A model generated the notes under the pieces. The model was not told the origin of the DNA. It saw nothing but the letters and a program-made list of their open reading frames with translations, and searched no databases. A DNA stretch of 43,896 nucleotides from an uncultured archaeon (lineage in GTDB: Archaea; EX4484-52; JAADEF01), in assembly GCA_964407715.1 (NCBI GenBank), contig CAYOWP010000010.1, positions 1-43,896 on the forward strand, in the 5' to 3' direction. Position numbers and translations under genes: made by a program. Shown one piece after another: positions 1,095-42,799 of the stretch (position 1 is its first letter; the number at the start of each line of letters is the position of its first letter).

Positions 1095-1369
1095 GGTATT
1101 GTCCAATAATTCTCTATTGTTAAGCGGAAAGATAACCTCTTAAAGAAGCGTGTTAGAGCAGCTACCCTTTTGAATAGGGCTATGCTTCCTGTTAACCAAT
1201 TATTTTGAATGGATAAAAATTGTTAACAGGAAGAATTCGCTATCACTACAGGTTCCGTAGCATGCTAACCTCTCAAAAGGGTTAGCTGCTCTACCGCTGC
1301 TCATTTACTGGGTATGCTTCCGCTTAACCATTCTTATTAAAGAAATCTTTAACATTATTGGAGAATAAT
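1095..1369. mobile_element. MITE-like element carrying two palindromic units (about 80 and 109 bp)
   Basis: Left TIR GGTATTGTCCAATAAT at 1095, degenerate right TIR ATTATTGGAGAATAAT; units at 1118-1197 and 1221-1329. Confidence 0.7.
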
Positions 1370-5700: not shown

Positions 5701-5837
5701 GGTATTGTCCAATAATATATTTTGAGAAATTTGGTTAACGGAAAGCATAGCCCTATTCAAAAGGGTTAACTGCTCTCATGCGCTTCTGTGAGAGGTTATG
5801 TTTCCGCTTAACAAATAGAGAATTATTGGACAATATC
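5701..5837. mobile_element. MITE-like element carrying one 81-bp palindromic unit
   Basis: GGTATTGTCCAATAAT ... ATTATTGGACAATATC terminal inverted repeats; unit 5733-5813 nearly identical to 13320-13400. Confidence 0.8.
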
Positions 5838-8956: not shown

Positions 8957-9080
8957 TCCCGCCGCCCGGATTCGAACCGGGGACAATGCGGTATCTGTTG
9001 ATATATGGTAGAGCACCACCAATCCTCTCCATTGGAGAGGATCTACAGCCGCACGCTCTACCAGGCTGAGCTACGGCGGG
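8957..9080 (-). tRNA. tRNA-Tyr(GTA) with 50-nt intron at canonical 37/38 (intron 8993-9042)
   Basis: Reverse complement CCCGCCGTAGCTCAGCCTGGTAGAGCGTGCGG-CT-GTA-G|intron|A-CCGCA...GGTTCGAATCCGGGCGGCGGG-A; BHB central helix CTGT/ACAG; CCA not encoded. Confidence 0.95.
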
Positions 9081-13196: not shown

Positions 13197-13423
13197 TGTT
13201 AAGCGGAAAAGCAACCTCTTAAAGAAGAGTATTAGAGCAGCAAACCTTGTAGAGCTAATGCGATTGTAAGAGCAAATTTTCTCGTTAACAAATCCTTATT
13301 AAAAAATTATTAGGCAATTTGTTAACGGGAAGCATAGCCCTATTCAAAAGGGTTAACTGCTCTCATGCGCTTCTTTGAGAGGTTATGTTTCTGCTTAACA
13401 ATAAAGAGTTATTGGACAATGCC
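13197..13423. mobile_element. MITE-like element (left TIR lost) with 94-bp and 81-bp units
   Basis: Right TIR TTATTGGACAATGCC ends at 13423; collinear in reverse orientation with 23544-23798 and 28641-28899. Confidence 0.8.
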
Positions 13424-13480
13424 TATGTTAACACAAAAAGAGTGAAATTATATATATCCTTATGCTCTTATAAGAATATT

Positions 13481-14632
13481 ATGGAAAACCGAAAATTCTT
13501 CTCAATAAGCATTCAGGTTTTGATAACGCTTATGCTTTTATATTCATTAGCTTTAGCTGTGGATGTGGATGTAACAAAGCCATGGCATTATCTCTCGCAA
13601 ATTGCAAAAAGCCGGTTTGATTTGACATCTATTGACTCGGACGAGAATGGAAGGATAGATGCAGGCATTATAGAAGACACATTACAAGACATAACAAACA
13701 ATGGAGCCACCACTACGCATACAATCAATGTAGGCGGATTAAACTCTGCTGGCGCTATTATTGCATCAGGTAACTTGAACATCGGTAGTGGAAAGTTATT
13801 TGTGGATGTTAGTACTGGAAGAGTTGGAATAGGAACAGCTTCACCAACAGCGAAGTTGGATGTGAAGGGAGATGTGAAAATCTCTGGCTCTATTACAGGA
13901 TCAGGAAATCTTAACATTGGTTCTGGAAAGTTATTTGTGGATGTTAGCACAGGTAAGGTAGGTATAGGAACAACATCTCCACATGGTAACCTTGGAATCA
14001 AACAAGGACATGGAGATTGGATTACATTAGAAAGAACTGCTGGTTCTGGATATTGGCATATTCACAATCCAAGTACTCAAGAAAGAATTGAAATTGGTTA
14101 TACTTCCGATAGCGGAACTACTCGATGGGGAATGTTTGTTATTAAAGATAATGGCAATGTTGGAATAGGAACAAATTCACCAACAGCAAAGTTGGATGTA
14201 AATGGAAATCTCAAAGTGAGAGGATTTACTTTAGAGCATCAGGGAGCAGATTTTGTATTGGGGACAAATGATGGTAGAAACAAAGGAAGCAAGACATCTC
14301 AAAGAGCCCTAGTTCATGGTGGTAACGATGAGTTAATAATTAATTATAATGGTGATTTTGAAGGTGGCGTAGTAGTGCAAGGTCCTAGCTTAAAAGTTAC
14401 AGGTTCATTATGCTTAAGTGATGGATGTAAGAGTAAGTGGAGTGAGATTGGTGGTGTAATAGACTTATATAGGGTATACACAGAAACAGGTGGAAGAACT
14501 ATGAATGCGGAAAGTATATGTAGATCAAAAGGATATGATGGATTTTGGGCAGGAATGGATAATGATGATGGAAGTGAATATATCATATGTTATAAAGTAC
14601 GTGAAGGAATCACTATAGTAAGACATTTCTAA
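13481..14632 (+). CDS. Secreted surface protein with tail-fibre-like G(N/R/K)VGIGT.SP repeats
   Basis: Sec-type signal peptide; three VGIGT(A/T/N)SP repeats, two followed by TAKLDV.G; TTATATAT about 30 nt upstream; the ORF-track start at 13385 lies inside the MITE. Confidence 0.8.
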   Translation: MENRKFFSISIQVLITLMLLYSLALAVDVDVTKPWHYLSQIAKSRFDLTSIDSDENGRIDAGIIEDTLQDITNNGATTTHTINVGGLNSAGAIIASGNLNIGSGKLFVDVSTGRVGIGTASPTAKLDVKGDVKISGSITGSGNLNIGSGKLFVDVSTGKVGIGTTSPHGNLGIKQGHGDWITLERTAGSGYWHIHNPSTQERIEIGYTSDSGTTRWGMFVIKDNGNVGIGTNSPTAKLDVNGNLKVRGFTLEHQGADFVLGTNDGRNKGSKTSQRALVHGGNDELIINYNGDFEGGVVVQGPSLKVTGSLCLSDGCKSKWSEIGGVIDLYRVYTETGGRTMNAESICRSKGYDGFWAGMDNDDGSEYIICYKVREGITIVRHF

Positions 14633-16927: not shown

Positions 16928-18421
16928 ATGATAGATAAGAAAGCACATCTTCTAATATTTTCATTTTTAGTATTTGTTGCTCTACCTCTCTCACATGCAG
17001 CCACCTCTCTCAACTCCTGCACCACAATCTCATCTCCAGGAGTTTATTATTTAACTTCTGACATCACTGATTCAAGCAGCACCTGCTTTACAATCTCTAC
17101 TTCTAACGTAACCTTGGATTGCCAAGGACATGTGATTGATGGTACTCAAGCCTCTGGTAGTTATGGCATATATGCCAGTGGCTCCTTAAGCAACATCACC
17201 ATAAGAAACTGCAAAATCCAAGAGTTTTATTATGGAATTTACTTCTATAATGGTGTTCATGATAGCAAGATAGAGAATGTGATAAGTAATGACAACAATG
17301 ATACTGGTATCTTACTTTCCTCTTCCTCATATAATACACTCTCCAATATCACTGCTAACGATAATGACAACTACTTTGGTATTAAGCTTGATCATTCCCT
17401 ATATAATATACTTCATAACATTATTGCCAATAACAATGGATATGGTGGTATAACACTCGATTATTCATCAAATAATACATTAATAAACGTCACTGCAAAT
17501 AATAACAAAGGCACAGATGGAGGTATCTTTCTTGATTATTCCTCGTATAATACATTAATAAACATCACTGCAAATAATAACACTGTAGGGATATACATTT
17601 GGGACGATTGTGAGAATAACATTCTAGCAAATTCTACTTTTCTATATAACAATTATGGGATATCAATAGGTTCAGGAGGGGGAAATAATATTATTTACAA
17701 TAACATTTTTAATGGTACAAAGGATAGCTTCATCTTTATGGATTTTCCACCCAACCAATGGAACACCTCCCTACAACTTGGCCCAAACATAGTGGGGAGA
17801 CCTTTCATAGGAGGAAATGTGTATGCTACTCCTTCAGGAGATGGATACTCGCAAACTTGCGATGATGCGAATCATGATGGGATATGCGATTCTCCATATA
17901 CATTAGCATCAGGAAATGTGGATTATTATCCTCTAGCGTTATCAAAGACATATCCTTTAAATCCAAAAATCTATGTGGGAGAGCAATTGGCATGGAAATA
18001 TGACGGATTCTTTACTAAAAGCGCAAAGATAGATATAACTCCTTACATACTTAATTATATCAACAATAATTGTTCTGGAACATTACCATGTACAATTCCA
18101 ATAACATATAAAGCAGATTCTCGTGGAGGTATTAATATTGTTGGGGATATCATATATAGAGGATATGTGGTAAGGGTCGAGAACATACTCTTTGAGAATG
18201 CAGGAATAAAGAACATAACTATCTATAGCAATGATTATAAGAAAGTATGCTATACAAATCTCTCAAAGATATATGTTTTACCTCCTGGAGGAATAGGCAT
18301 TTTCAGGATACCTTGCGATATACTGTGCAATAACATAAAAGACATAATAGTTGAAACCACGTGTGGTGTAAAGGATAAGCTATCAAGTCATCCTGCAAGG
18401 GATGAGATTTTGAGGTGTTAA
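16928..18421 (+). CDS. Secreted parallel beta-helix (NosD/CASH-like) surface protein
   Basis: Signal peptide; CTTISSPGVYYLTSD, TLDCQGH.IDG, repeated S.N.L.NITANNN..GI, IGGNVY, DGICD.PY, DYYPL; start after TTTAAATA. Confidence 0.85.
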   Translation: MIDKKAHLLIFSFLVFVALPLSHAATSLNSCTTISSPGVYYLTSDITDSSSTCFTISTSNVTLDCQGHVIDGTQASGSYGIYASGSLSNITIRNCKIQEFYYGIYFYNGVHDSKIENVISNDNNDTGILLSSSSYNTLSNITANDNDNYFGIKLDHSLYNILHNIIANNNGYGGITLDYSSNNTLINVTANNNKGTDGGIFLDYSSYNTLINITANNNTVGIYIWDDCENNILANSTFLYNNYGISIGSGGGNNIIYNNIFNGTKDSFIFMDFPPNQWNTSLQLGPNIVGRPFIGGNVYATPSGDGYSQTCDDANHDGICDSPYTLASGNVDYYPLALSKTYPLNPKIYVGEQLAWKYDGFFTKSAKIDITPYILNYINNNCSGTLPCTIPITYKADSRGGINIVGDIIYRGYVVRVENILFENAGIKNITIYSNDYKKVCYTNLSKIYVLPPGGIGIFRIPCDILCNNIKDIIVETTCGVKDKLSSHPARDEILRC

Positions 18422-28586: not shown

Positions 28587-28640
28587 AATAATAGAGATAG
28601 TCTTAAAAATTTATAAAATTGTAATTGGAGATGCAGGGGG

Positions 28641-28899
28641 GGATTGTCCAATAATCCTTTATTGTTAAGCGGAAACATACCTCTCAAACAAGCGCATGAG
28701 AGCAGTTAACCCTTTTGAATAGGGCTATGCTCTCCGTTAACAAATCGTTCAACAATTTTTGATGAGGATTTGTTAACGAGAAAATTTGCTCCTACAATGG
28801 CATTAGCTCTACAAGGTCAGCTTGCTCTAATACGCTTCTTTAAAAGGTTACTTTTCCGCTTAACAAAATTTTGTTAATAGGGAATTATTGGACAATGCC
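28641..28899. mobile_element. MITE-like element with two units and a candidate 8-bp target-site duplication
   Basis: GG(-)ATTGTCCAATAAT ... ATTATTGGACAATGCC; flanks GCAGGGGG (28633-28640) and ACAGGGGG (28900-28907). Confidence 0.85.
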
Positions 28900-28992
28900 A
28901 CAGGGGGATTATGTTGTGTGATTAGCCTTTTTTCTTTGGCATAAGGAACACTCTAAATATGACCTAAAAAGAAAAAAGAAAAATGTCATTTA

Positions 28993-29438: not shown

Positions 29439-29573
29439 TGCAGGGGGTGGGATTTGAACCCACGAACCCACTAAGGGAGTGGATTTCTCAGAAGATATCA
29501 AATCATCGCATCGCTCATTACTCAAGATTCCCTCTTGAGTCCACCGCCGTTGGCCAGGCTTGGCGACCCCTGC
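29439..29573 (-). tRNA. tRNA-Leu(CAA) with 49-nt intron at 37/38 (intron 29485-29533)
   Basis: Reverse complement GCAGGGGTCGCCAAGCCTGGCCAACGGCG-GTGGA-CT-CAA-G|intron|A-TCCAC, long variable arm, GTGGGTTCAAATCCCAC-CCCCTGC-A; BHB helix CTCA/TGAG. Confidence 0.95.
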
Positions 29574-29622: not shown

Positions 29623-30041
29623 GGTTAACAGAAAAAATCGCTAACATGAAGGTTTCAAAGCAGCTAACCTAAATAAAAGGTTAGCTGCATACTGTCCTTT
29701 TTTAAGGTTAGCTGCAATAACATGCTCTCTTAAAGAGGTATGCTTCCCGTTAACCATATTTCTCTTTAAAAATTTGGTTAAGGGGAAACCTAACCTTTCA
29801 AGAAGGCACATGGAAGCAGCTAACCTAATTAAGAGTTAGCTGCTGTAATCTCTCTCATTGATAAGGTATTCTTCCCGTTAACCATATTTTTAAAAATAAA
29901 AAATTGGTTAACGCGAGAAAATCGCTATTGCCAAGGTTTTGCAGTATAATAGCCCCCTGCTAAGGTCAGCAGCTTCCCAATCGCTCAGAAAGGTTAGCTG
30001 CTTTGGTGTAGCTAATTGATTTGGTATGCTTTGCATTAACC
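29623..30041. repeat. Tandem array of 3 modular palindromic units (133, 108, 136 bp)
   Basis: Units 29623-29755, 29776-29883 and 29906-30041, each GGTTAA...TTAACC with GCAGCTAACC/GGTTAGCTGC cores; AT spacers of 20 and 22 bp. Confidence 0.85.
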
Positions 30042-33853: not shown

Positions 33854-36403
33854 TTAGCAAATTATTTTCCTTTTTATAACTGGATGTAAAGACAACTTAT
33901 CCTTTACACCACATGTAGTTTCAACTATTATGTCCTCTATATCTGAGCAGAACAAATCCTTACATAAAATCTTAAATATACCTATACCTCCTGGTGGGAG
34001 AATATATTTTTTGCTTAAATTAGTAGAGCATACAGGTTTAAGTTGTTTATTATAAATGGTTATATTTGTAATCTCTGCTGTTTCAGTCATTATATTTTCA
34101 ATAATAACTTTGTATCCTTCCTCTCCATGTCTAAGTATCCTTATACTTCCTCTTGAATCTGCAGTTGCTTTAATAGGCACTGTACATGGAAATACATTTC
34201 CACATTTAGTGGAAATATATTTCTTCACAGCATTCAATATATTAACTAAATAGGTTTGTGTAGTATCATTAAAGAAGCCATTATACTTCCATACCAATTG
34301 CTCTCCCACATAGATTTTTGGATTTAAAGGATATGTTTTTGATAATGCTAAAGGATAATAATCTATGTTTCCTGGTGCTAATGTATATGGAGAATCGCAT
34401 ATTCCATCATGATTAGTGTCATTGCAAGTTTCTGAGTAACCATTTCCTGAAGGCGTAGCATACACATTACCACCAATGAAAGGTCTCCCCACTATGTTTG
34501 GTCCAAGTTGTAGAGTGGTATTCCATTGATTTGATGAAGAGGAAATGTAAATGTTGTTGGTGTTGTTAAGAAGGTTGTTGTAGAAAAGGTTGTTATCTGA
34601 ACTACTAAGATAAATACCATATTGAGCACTGTATTTTATTGTGGAATTTGCTATTATGTTGGAGGAAGAGGAATAGAGACAGATACCACGATTATTACTA
34701 TTGGCAGTGATGTTTGTTAATGTATTAGAGGAAGAAGAACTAAAATAGATGCCTTCTCCAGAGTTGCTATTAGCAATGATGTTTGTTAATGTATTGGACG
34801 AACCACTAAGATAAATACCAATGCCCCCATTGTGATTAGCAGTGATATTTATAATAGTATTAGAAGAAGAGCAAGAAAGCACAAGACCCCAATTGTTATT
34901 ATTAACAAGAATATCTGTTATAGTGTTCAAAGAAGAACGAGAAAAACGGATACCGTATCTATTCTCTTTAGCAGTAATGTTTATTAAAGTGTTAAATGAT
35001 GAATACCAATAAATATAAACCCCATCATAACTATTCTCTTTAGCAGTAATGTTTATTAAAGTGTTAAATGATGAATAAGAATCAAGCCAGATGCCATAAT
35101 CCGGGCTACTCTTAGTGATTATATTCTCTAAGGTATTATATTTAGCATTAGTTAAGTAGATATTTGCAGAATCCCAATCTGTTAATTGACAGTTCTTAAT
35201 TACATGACCATAACCATAATCAATATAAATCCCATAATCAGCATTGTCATCTCCGTCTATTAAATGGTTTTGGCAATCAAATGTTATTTCTGGATATGTA
35301 TAAGGATCAAAATATATACATTTAGATGTGGTGAAGTTTATAATATCAACAGTTAATTGCACTATATCATTGGGAGTTGCATTGTTTTGTATTATAGATG
35401 TACACTCGCTACATGATGAGCAAGTAAATGTTTTTTGAGGTGTTCCTGTATAGATTGGATAGTAATCATATTTATTATTGATGGCATAAGGGTTATCGCA
35501 TATATTGTCATTGTTAGTATCATAGCATCCTTCATGTTCAGCATCATATGCTAACCAGTGATTTCCTATGTTTGTGTAGTTCCATTTTGTTGTTGATGAT
35601 TCATCTGAGATTTTATATTTTGATGATAATAGATTGTTATAAAAGAGATTGTTATCACCGGATGTTATTCTTATATCATTGATTTTATTTCTTATTATGG
35701 TATTGTTTTTGAAGAGATTATTATCTGAATTCTTTAGGTAAATACCTTGAGCATTGAATGTGATTGTTGTGGATGTGATGTTGTTATCTGAACCATCTTC
35801 GAGCCCAAGACCATATTGATTATTATGTGAGATTGTGGAATTTGCTATGGTATTGAAGGAAGAGGAAGAATAACAAAAATATACACCATAATTGTTATTA
35901 TTAGCAGTGATATTTACAAAAATGTTAAAGGAAGAACCATCAATACGAATACCTGTATCACCATTGTTATTGGCAATAATGTTTGTTAAGGTGTTGGAGG
36001 ATGAGGAAGAGAGACGGATGCCATAATAATTGTTGCTATTACTCACAACATTCTCTATCTTGCTATCATGTACTCCATCACGAAGATAAATTCCATGATA
36101 AAATTCTTGGATTTTGCAGTTTCTTATGGTGATGTTGCTTAAGGAGCCGCTTGCATATATCCCATAACTACCAGAGGCTTTAGTACCATCAATCACATGC
36201 CATTGGCAATCCAAGGTTACATCAGAAGAGGAGATAGTAAAGCAAGTGCTGCTTGAATCAGTGATGTCAGAAGTTAAATAATAAACTCCTGGAGATGAGA
36301 TGGTGGTGCAGGAGTTGAGAGAGGTTGCTGCGTAGGTTAAAGTTATCAAGTTTATAAAACTAAAAAACATCCATAGCAATACTTTATGGTTTTTGATTTT
36401 CAT
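33854..36403 (-). CDS. Secreted tandem parallel beta-helix (NosD/CASH-like) surface protein; paralogue of 16928-18421
   Basis: Signal peptide, two beta-helix domains each ending in ICD.PY/DYYP, shared C-terminal region; GAGGTG RBS. Confidence 0.87.
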   Translation of the reverse strand: MKIKNHKVLLWMFFSFINLITLTYAATSLNSCTTISSPGVYYLTSDITDSSSTCFTISSSDVTLDCQWHVIDGTKASGSYGIYASGSLSNITIRNCKIQEFYHGIYLRDGVHDSKIENVVSNSNNYYGIRLSSSSSNTLTNIIANNNGDTGIRIDGSSFNIFVNITANNNNYGVYFCYSSSSFNTIANSTISHNNQYGLGLEDGSDNNITSTTITFNAQGIYLKNSDNNLFKNNTIIRNKINDIRITSGDNNLFYNNLLSSKYKISDESSTTKWNYTNIGNHWLAYDAEHEGCYDTNNDNICDNPYAINNKYDYYPIYTGTPQKTFTCSSCSECTSIIQNNATPNDIVQLTVDIINFTTSKCIYFDPYTYPEITFDCQNHLIDGDDNADYGIYIDYGYGHVIKNCQLTDWDSANIYLTNAKYNTLENIITKSSPDYGIWLDSYSSFNTLINITAKENSYDGVYIYWYSSFNTLINITAKENRYGIRFSRSSLNTITDILVNNNNWGLVLSCSSSNTIINITANHNGGIGIYLSGSSNTLTNIIANSNSGEGIYFSSSSSNTLTNITANSNNRGICLYSSSSNIIANSTIKYSAQYGIYLSSSDNNLFYNNLLNNTNNIYISSSSNQWNTTLQLGPNIVGRPFIGGNVYATPSGNGYSETCNDTNHDGICDSPYTLAPGNIDYYPLALSKTYPLNPKIYVGEQLVWKYNGFFNDTTQTYLVNILNAVKKYISTKCGNVFPCTVPIKATADSRGSIRILRHGEEGYKVIIENIMTETAEITNITIYNKQLKPVCSTNLSKKYILPPGGIGIFKILCKDLFCSDIEDIIVETTCGVKDKLSLHPVIKRKIIC
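34959..35077. repeat. Exact 47-bp intragenic direct repeat, 72-bp period
   Basis: 34959-35005 equals 35031-35077, encoding YSSFNTLINITAKEN twice. Confidence 0.9.
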
Positions 36404-38279: not shown

Positions 38280-38428
38280 AGCATTATCCGATAATTCTCT
38301 ATTTGTTAAGCGGAAAAGTAACCTCTTAAAGAAGCGCATTAGAGCAGCAAACCTTATAGAGCTAATGCAATTGTAGGAGCAAGTTTTCTCGTTAATAAAT
38401 CCTCATCAAAAAATTATTTGACAATACC
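38280..38428. mobile_element. MITE-like element carrying one unit of about 94 bp
   Basis: AGCATTATCCGATAAT ... ATTATTTGACAATACC (degenerate TIRs); body matches 13197-13315. Confidence 0.8.
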
Positions 38429-41851: not shown

Positions 41852-42799
41852 GAGCAGTTTGGAAGCAGCTAACATTTCTTAAGGATTAGCTATATTTCCA
41901 GTTATCCAATTTATTTTAAAAAACAAAAAATGGTTAAGTGGAAGAATACCCCATGAATGAGCAATATTACAGCAGCTAACCTTTGAAAGCAGTTAGGAAG
42001 CAGGTAACCCTTAATAGAGGTTAGCTGCTCTAAAACATTTGTGTTAGCGATTTCTTTCCGTTAACCAAATTTTATAAAATAAAAATGGTTAAGGGGAGAA
42101 ACACATAATCAACTAATCTCATTGGAGCAGCTAACCTTTTTGAAGAGGTTTGTGAGCAGCTAACCTTAAAAATGAGGTTAGCATGCTACAAAACCTATGG
42201 TATTGGCGATATCCTGCCGTTAACCAATTATTTTAATAAAAATAGTTAAGGGGAAAAGGTCCTCTTAATGAAGCACATCACAACAGCTAACCTTTTTGAG
42301 AGGTTAGCTGCTCTCAAACCTTTGGAAAAAAGATATCTTCCTGTTAACCAATTTAAAATGGTTAACGGGAAGAGTACCTAATCAATTAGCCACACCAGAG
42401 CAGCTAACCTTTTTGAGAGGTTAGCTGCTCTCAAACCTTTGTATTAGCGATATCCTCCCGTTAACCAATTTAAAAAGAATAAAAAATGGTTAAGGGGAAA
42501 CCTAACCTTGTAAGAGACTATCCAGCAGCAGCTAACCTTTTATTCACGTGTATGAAGCGGCTAACCCAATAAAGCGGTTAGCATGGTGAAAAACCTTTGT
42601 ATTGGCGATTTCTTCATGTTAACCAAATCATTTAAAAAACAAAAATGCGAAATCTTCCAGTTAACCATTTTTTAAATTTTTGTTATTGGTTAACGAGAAA
42701 CATGACTTATAATAAAAGTATCTTGCAGCATGATAAACTTTTATTACATATTATCATGCTGCAATATGATTGCTTGGTTAGGTATCGTTTCTGTTCACT
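41852..42799. repeat. Tandem array of about 8 modular palindromic units (5 intact)
   Basis: Intact units 41932-42066, 42087-42225, 42244-42349, 42360-42466 and 42488-42624; partial or degenerate at 41852-41907, 42647-42666 and 42688-42799. Confidence 0.9.

Follow-up and report, generated by a model that had tools for sequence, protein, structure and literature searches.

Evidence for arm reassortment in a family of imperfect palindromic repeats from the genome of an uncultured archaeon

The stretch of DNA analysed here (the window, 43,896 nucleotides) is the entire contig C10 of a 16-contig assembly of 898,521 bases from an uncultured archaeon, which is 92.1% complete, has a G+C content of about 32%, and carries archaeal housekeeping genes in the window, for example those for PolB and topoisomerase VI. 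Among its non-coding repeat units (Table 1) are two arrays. A three-unit array at 29623-30041 is flanked by an intron-bearing tRNA gene (29439-29573, minus strand) and a Toprim-domain gene, and an array of five units and a degenerate sixth at 41932-42797 lies between a NUDIX gene (minus strand) and a TtuA-like gene (plus strand). The core decamer of these units, GCAGCTAACC, occurs at 31 sites in the window with at most one mismatch, against 0.90 expected; the maximum among 100 shuffles of the sequence was 4, and none of the 100 reached 31. The 135-nt tRNA gene that adjoins the first array contains a long insert, presumably an intron, and scored 35.6 bits in a focused Rfam scan (gathering score 29); it was missed by ARAGORN and by a whole-window scan at the gathering threshold. 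Another intron-bearing tRNA lies at 8957-9080 (minus strand).

Table 1 Repeat units and related elements in the window. L and R are the two half-types, a to d the arm labels of the initial annotation; bits are half-HMM scores given as L/R.
Position	Strand	Size and form	Arms	Bits (L/R)	Remarks
1119..1197	.	78-79-nt relative (family B)	L-type half, then directly inverted outer L segment		TTGTCCAATAAT motif precedes
1222..1329	-	short	R-L (d + b-like)		subfamily copied as whole unit
5733..5812		family B, further copy
13198..13290		piece related to family B
13321..13399		family B, further copy
28664..28864		piece related to family B
29623..29755	-	133 nt, long, extra central hairpin	R-L: arm d left, a-type L arm right	left end 15/21, right end 38/16
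29776..29883	.	108 nt, aberrant	L-L: L-type arm on both sides (a+b)	left 44/0, right 35/23	symmetric core GCAGCTAACC...AGTTAGCTGC
29906..30041	-	136 nt, long	R-L (d+c)	left 0/37, right 17/0	central hairpin degenerate
38305..38395		piece related to family B
41932..42066	+	135 nt, long	L-R (b+d)		first in five-unit same-orientation array
42087..42225	+	139 nt, long	L-R (c-like + d)
42245..42349	+	105 nt, short	a-like L arm + degenerate R (d) arm, typed L-?	right end 27/28	L arm 2 mismatches from C14:16622 L arm
42360..42466	+	107 nt, short canonical	L-R (c+d)
42488..42624	+	137 nt, long	L-R (a+d)
42688..42797	.	degenerate			closes array; nhmmer about 29-30 bits on both strands

Read 5' to 3', a unit opens with a left terminal inverted repeat (TIR), GGTTAA(C/G)GGGAAG, followed by the L arm, which is variable in sequence and measures about 28 nt. 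Next comes the central hairpin, GCAGCTAACC-loop-GGTTAGC(A)TGCTGC, of which the 135-nt form has two copies; beyond it lies the R arm, likewise variable, which measures about 25 nt, ends in AGCGAT and leads into the right TIR, CTTCCCGTTAACC. Complementarity at the first six pairs of the 13-nt TIR holds in 126-158 of the scored units. Within arrays, units follow one another head to tail and are separated by AT-rich spacers of 10-25 nt. With an nhmmer profile built from 55 oriented units, true units score about 85-95 bits on the forward strand versus 35-48 bits on the reverse strand, a gap from which it follows that the units are imperfect palindromes with a definite orientation. When separate profiles (HMMs) were used for the two half-units, the 494 strong half-sites were bimodal, with 275 assigned to L, 207 to R and 12 ambiguous (within 5 bits); the two half-types, L and R, are discrete. 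The consensus of the loop, TTTTnAAGA, is near-palindromic in its own right (4.46 mismatches forward versus 5.12 in reverse complement), which masks any flip of the loop. A layout of heptamers (GGTTARC in alternating orientation) was considered as a description of the family and dropped as too variable. Many a-type L arms also hold a short, loopless perfect palindrome (CCTCTTAAGAGG, CTCTCAAGAGAG, CCTTCAAGAAGG), for instance at C8:37702-37809 and at 29623-29755 in the window, both halves of which co-vary between copies; a DNA-binding site for a dimeric protein would account for this better than a hairpin would.

The initial annotation had described the units of the window as combinations of a small set of four interchangeable arms, a to d, swapped at the core. 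All nine of its arm labels, with arms read inward, were reproduced from the sequence. The half-HMMs, however, give two types of arm instead of four cassettes: arm d (ATCGCTAA...AAGGTTT when read inward) corresponds to R, the obligatory 3' arm, and the labels a, b and c denote variants of L, the 5' arm. Accordingly, eight of the nine units are L plus R in one of two orientations, and only the unit at 29776 is L-L. The different pairings that had been reported thus reduce, for d with another arm as against another arm with d, to orientation only, whereas the a+b pairing of 29776 stands as a genuinely aberrant composition.

Throughout the assembly, half-site assembly recovered a family of 212 units with a typical size of 108-135 bases. 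Contig C9 was left out of this and every other count, as its inclusion would double-count about 30 repeat units: C9:262-43957 is a reverse-complement copy of C8:7161-50856 (43,696 bases, 100% identity), probably through redundancy of assembly or binning. Composition is L-R in 77 units, R-L in 96, L-L in 27, R-R in 4 and ambiguous in 8, exactly one L and one R being present in 173 of the 212. Most units belong to one of two size classes, of 105-114 nt (99 units) and 130-139 nt (76 units), with a second copy of the central hairpin in the long form, and 19 of the 212 units have the size of family B (75-84 nt). A further 138 half-sites are orphans outside assembled units. Units cover 24,371 bases (2.85%), or 30,489 bases (3.57%) together with the orphan half-sites, which amounts to about 20% of the intergenic DNA as crudely defined; only 773 repeat bases lie inside crude ORFs (gene calls throughout are such ORFs of at least 100 aa). 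The units form 91 arrays of 1-7 units each, and only one of the 91 arrays is of mixed orientation. Arrays lie between divergent genes in 43 of 85 scorable cases versus 138 of 669 gene pairs overall, an enrichment that may reflect larger promoter-side gaps or tolerance of insertion, and the orientation of units shows no bias with respect to flanking genes as crudely called.

Relatives of the family were sought in three ways, in each case among genomes of which many are fragmented: BLAST gave no match in 40 relatives (many of them fragmented bins, in which repeats assemble poorly), a covariance model gave none in 41 genomes of the same order, and the exact core pattern was found in no other species of a species-representative collection. 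The units are best read as one lineage-specific family of non-coding imperfect palindromes, a BIME/MITE kind of selfish DNA.

The two arms of a unit diverge with almost no correlation between them. Among 152 well-aligned units, the Mantel correlation between L-arm and R-arm distances is r = 0.067 (999 permutations: sd 0.032, maximum 0.129), as against 0.26-0.29 between odd and even columns within one half, and the nearest neighbour of a unit by its L arm ranks, at the median, only 62nd of 151 by R-arm distance. L arms at most 3/28 columns apart (56 of 11,476 pairs) are accompanied by R arms that differ at a median of 10 columns versus a background of 12, and R arms at most 3/28 columns apart (45 of 11,476 pairs) by L arms that differ at a median of 10 versus 13. 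In the most extreme pairs of units, one arm shows 0/28 differences and the other 12-15/28. The window offers examples: the unit at 42360 has an R arm with 0/28 differences from that of C14:16622-16755 and an L arm that differs at 15/28, the tract of identity beginning at GAGCAGCTAACC, and the unit at 41932 has an R arm 2 mismatches from that of C11:8255 and an L arm that differs at 15/28 columns.

Linkage counts over the 173 canonical units, in which arms were taken as shared when near-identical (at most 3/28 columns differing), lead to the same result. Pairs that share an L arm also have the R arm in common (at most 5 differences) in 23 of 69 cases, and pairs that share an R arm have the L arm in common in 24 of 78; the 26 groups of L arms (76 units) are joined to 61 distinct R arms, and the 19 groups of R arms (63 units) to 48 distinct L arms. 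Even the long or short state of the unit is discordant in 17 of the 69 L-sharing and 15 of the 78 R-sharing pairs. Recently shared arms are thus usually joined to unrelated partner arms, and the two arm trees are incongruent; copying of whole units, which the initial annotation had already set aside, is rejected as the general rule. A PHI test on 112 units with 77 informative sites gave p = 0.81, homoplasy being saturated at the arm sites.

The repertoire from which these combinations are drawn is neither small nor sharply divided. At a 30% distance cut, 169 L arms fall into 46 clusters, 14 of which have five or more members and 22 of which are singletons, with silhouette values of 0.15-0.30 and never above 0.30; R arms cluster still more weakly. 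Genome-wide, the small set of arms that had been proposed therefore gives way to at least 14 weak clusters of L arms and many singletons, and a dissolution of the arm classes into a continuum, named at the outset as a finding that would count against cassettes, is seen in part. L-arm and R-arm classes are near-independent (adjusted mutual information 0.06, permutation p = 0.002). There is one subfamily that has been copied whole: the L-arm class to which the window unit at 1222 belongs has 8 units, of which 7 are joined to a single R-arm class.

Units with two arms of the same type provide a second view of reassortment. In 11 of 13 full-size L-L or R-R units, the two arms differ from each other at 9-17/28 columns (background about 13), and each arm is closer to arms of other units. 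In the L-L unit at 29776, for example, the left arm differs by 1 mismatch from the L arm of C12:16066 and the right arm by 5 from the L arm of C8:39918, and between left and right there are differences at 13/28 columns. Since the arms of such units are dissimilar, they are not self-copies of the other arm of the same unit. L-L and R-R units are consistent with exchange in which the donor was oppositely oriented, as the near-palindromic core would allow.

It is conceivable in principle that no exchange has taken place at all, the mosaic having arisen by divergence after whole units were duplicated, or as an artefact of an assembly that formed chimeras at shared k-mers. The data come from a metagenome bin with the redundant contig C9, and the subfamily just described was indeed copied whole. 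However, 0/28 differences in one arm alongside 12-15/28 in the other, within a single pair of units, are incompatible with uniform mutation. The stretch is present as contigs in two public hydrothermal-vent DNA runs, and in one of them (X1, which may be the source sample) a 467-nt contig covers 29449-29915, including the L-L unit, with 0 differences. An assembly artefact is unlikely, given this identical contig and conserved blocks of only 10-14 nt, and we regard an origin of the mosaic without exchange as most improbable. Contig joints in the public runs were also considered as evidence of rearrangement and rejected, having sides of 20-39 letters that link different repeat copies.

Exchange events are inferred from one assembly and not seen directly, and their boundaries were located from the ends of shared tracts. 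In alignments with 60-nt flanks, tracts of identity take in one arm together with its TIR, and in many cases also the spacer and the TIR beyond it, and end at the core; on one side the shared sequence breaks off in the central hairpin, on the other within the spacer or past it. Pairs in which the unshared arm differs at eight columns or more were used to determine tract ends, by ungapped extension from the arm in common. Of the L-anchored tracts, all 25 terminate in the left part of the core (9) or the loop/middle (16), mostly within a few bases past GCAGCTAACC, and the 49 R-anchored tracts end in the right part of the core (28), the middle/loop (9), the L arm (9), the left part of the core (1) or the R arm (2). 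The null expectation was taken from simulated chimeras with breakpoints uniform per nucleotide and the same conditioning. Ends in the left core or middle were expected at 0.29 for L-anchored tracts and found in 25/25 pairs and 10/10 independent groups (p = 4e-6), and ends in the right core or middle were expected at 0.30 for R-anchored tracts and found in 37/49 pairs and 9/14 independent groups (p = 0.009); as pairs are not independent, these tests rest on only 10 and 14 independent groups. Breakpoints are thus not randomly placed, tract ends clustering at the central hairpin GCAGCTAACC-loop-GGTTAGC.

The hairpin is not the only boundary. Linkage to the arm of the neighbouring unit, across TIR-spacer-TIR, is retained in 1/24 and 2/15 cases, versus 23/69 and 24/78 across the core. 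Because linkage across the spacer is weaker than across the core, conserved blocks of both kinds bound the exchanged segments, which is the pattern expected of exchange that depends on local identity. Of the original proposal of exchange at the core, one part therefore holds, in that arms have indeed, to judge from the sequence, been re-paired repeatedly at the central hairpin; the other part, the core as a privileged site, does not.

The simplest mechanism, and the one we consider probable, is exchange driven by homology between copies, tandem and dispersed, of a selfish, BIME/MITE-like repeat. Ordinary homologous recombination or gene conversion between diverged repeats gives rise to exchange at conserved blocks of this sort. 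Under this model, arrays would grow by tandem duplication, and copies would swap segments by homology, through gene conversion, unequal crossing-over or template switching during replication. Only the central hairpin and the TIRs keep their identity from copy to copy, and junctions would fall there; with junctions confined to these conserved blocks, the variable arm between two blocks would behave as a cassette. The rare L-L and R-R units would arise when the donor lay in the opposite orientation. The identity required would be 10-14 nt, which is short for recombination of the RecA/RadA type, so that template switching or an enzyme may be involved.

One such alternative is a hairpin-recognising nuclease or strand transferase (HUH/Y1-like or other) that would cut in or beside the central hairpin and rejoin the halves. 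Tract ends cluster at the hairpin, arrays are amplified in a single orientation, and the tight stop of L-anchored tracts a few bases past GCAGCTAACC, in 25/25 pairs, would fit a site-specific hairpin cut equally well; there is also a precedent, described in PMC3333891, in which TnpA-REP acting in vitro on E. coli BIMEs produces variants and tandem amplification. Against such an enzyme stand the linkage breaks, which are commoner across TIR-spacer-TIR than across the core, and the R-anchored tracts, which end at varied positions (49 pairs). In addition, searches of the 92.1%-complete assembly for the Y1 transposase (PF01797), DDE_Tnp_1 (PF01609) and the TnpB zinc-ribbon (PF07282) found no match to any of the three, with control genomes positive, a Y1 gene outside the assembled part being possible, and no parent insertion sequence or cognate transposase was found with these three profiles. 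We consider enzyme-driven exchange unlikely. A bolder version, which we hold to be quite unlikely, would make the family an archaeal counterpart of REP/BIME without RAYT, in which a putative hairpin-specific nuclease or strand transferase, or a hairpin-specific template switch coupled to replication, would cut GCAGCTAACC/GGTTAGC, re-pair the halves, and both build and diversify the arrays.

The discreteness of the two halves raises a different possibility, that the half-unit (TIR, arm and core half, about 50 nt) is the true repeated or mobile entity, similar to a REP, and that arrays were built from halves or from R-spacer-L modules added into hairpin loops. The halves are unlinked as well as discrete, 138 half-sites are orphans, and some tracts do run from R arm through TIR, spacer and TIR to L arm and end at both cores (C16:3854 versus C16:4004). 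However, an L arm and the R arm of its upstream neighbour are rarely co-inherited (1/24), so that R-spacer-L is not the usual module, and the strict L plus R composition of 173/212 units, in arrays of one orientation, argues that whole units were amplified. That the half-unit is the mobile entity we regard as decidedly improbable.

The arrangement might also be seen as programmed shuffling of non-coding cassettes, which would generate diversity for a functional RNA or DNA element. The reassortment of arms, the clustering of junctions at the core and the share of the repeats in a reduced genome (about 20% of its crudely defined intergenic DNA) are in keeping with this idea, as is the frequency of 13-mers from the arms outside annotated repeats, 414 versus 211 +/- 19 for shuffled arms, or about twofold; this excess may, however, reflect composition or undetected degenerate copies. 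The search for a selected RNA structure argues against it. RNAalifold on 22 units gave a terminal stem and a core hairpin only, with compensatory change in 0/17 pairs, and on 90 short and 67 long units it gave no structure at default settings and, at relaxed settings, again the terminal stem and core hairpin only. Where stem positions vary among the 173 units they are mostly broken (TIR pair 7/44, 83/157; core pair 45/7, 76/158), with three compensated cases at each of these two pairs. In Rfam searches no family reaches threshold on the units, which give sub-threshold, hairpin-like matches only, and the whole-window scan returned only a tRNA at gathering score. We read the conserved blocks as signals at the level of sequence and not as a selected RNA fold. 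No RNA run is listed for the stretch among the public runs, which has no bearing on expression.

Nor do targets or dedicated loci speak for a programme. A search for a concentrated complementary target of the arms found none, with 87 weak hits spread over 77 bins; units show no orientation bias to genes; and neither an expression locus nor a donor locus was identified, the units being spread over 91 arrays, nor a recombinase among PF01797, PF01609 and PF07282. The cassette-shuffling system that the initial annotation had suggested shows no sign of existence as a dedicated system; these three families gave no match in the 92.1%-complete assembly, the core is not privileged and the set of arms is not small. 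Programmed shuffling seems to us very remote as an explanation.

Judged by architecture and mosaicism, the closest analogue of the family is the E. coli BIME. As described in PMC3333891, a REP is a sequence of 20-40 nt with a conserved GTAG at its 5' foot, and in a BIME-2 the y and z2 REPs are arranged as inverted pairs that a short linker and flanking motifs separate, the whole being repeated in tandem; the same account describes atypical BIMEs as chimeras in which the REPs y, z1 and z2 and the linkers L, S, s, l and r are variously combined, and TnpA-REP, the REP-associated Y1 transposase (RAYT), as cleaving iREP and linker sites in vitro and recombining them. Copy number and linkers of E. 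coli BIMEs vary (PMC3333891; PMC2817692). The archaeal units are similar in that their L and R halves are mutually inverted, the loop and the AT-rich spacer serve as two linkers, units form tandem arrays, and chimeric units show varied combinations of modules. They differ in their archaeal host; in halves of about 50 nt with the bounds GGTTAA(C/G) and GCTAACC and no GTAG/CTAC foot; in long, highly variable arms between conserved blocks; and in that a search of the 92.1%-complete assembly gave no Y1 transposase. The family has neither a 20-40-nt REP with its GTAG foot nor, in the assembled sequence, a match to the Y1 transposase, and we therefore do not file it as REP/BIME.

Other known systems share part of this pattern. 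Correia elements, according to the description in PMC2649163, are small and non-coding, with TIRs, a directional conserved core, length classes defined by internal blocks, variant ends and rare units with two like ends. The family resembles these repeat enclosed elements of Neisseria in its TIRs, directional core, length classes, variant ends and rare like-ended units, whereas Correia elements are dispersed single insertions with target duplications and most units here stand in arrays of 2-7 with AT-rich spacers. As for MITEs more generally, TIRs on a small non-coding element are present, and a cognate transposase was not found with PF01609, PF01797 and PF07282. Within the archaea, Suyama, Lathe and Bork reportedly described in 2005 the palindromic repeats MJRE1-3 of Methanocaldococcus jannaschii. 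The present family is similar in being made of abundant, old and diverged palindromic intergenic repeats in an AT-rich archaeon; its exact core pattern occurs in no other species representative. The process proposed here is like segmental gene conversion, or concerted evolution, in tandem or dispersed repeat families, in which variable segments are swapped with junctions in conserved flanks and no dedicated machinery is involved. It differs from the usual case in that the blocks are very short (10-14 nt) and palindromic, which makes inverted donors and hairpin-promoted template switching possible.

Under the model of homology-driven exchange, the family would exemplify a selfish repeat that diversifies inside a very small archaeal genome, with palindromic blocks acting as exchange points and arms as cassettes. 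The logic would be that of bacterial BIME mosaics, here in an assembly that gave no match to the transposase regarded as the driver of BIMEs. For annotation this implies caution, as combinations of arms should not be read as a designed system or as RNA genes. The approximately 200 apparent natural recombinants would also serve as a source of rules for junctions.

Several further repeats were observed in and around the window. A related short family, bounded by TGTTAA(G/C)...GTTAACA, is found at 1099-1197, 5733-5835, 13198-13415, 28636-28905 and 38305-38395. Both of its ends carry an outer motif, ATTGTCCAATAAT / ATTATTGGACAAT, as in the copy at 28640-28900, where no clean target duplication was seen by eye; the short family looks like a MITE made of the same L-type modules. 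A multi-copy gene at 13385-14632 (plus strand) encodes a secreted-looking protein with repeated SGNLNIGSGKLFVDVSTG.VGIGT..P..KLDV.G motifs and has copies on C11, C1, C7 and C5, its 5' 700 nt being 85-95% identical among at least four contigs. Two further multi-copy segments of 600-1000 nt lie at 17753-18420 and 35040-36023.
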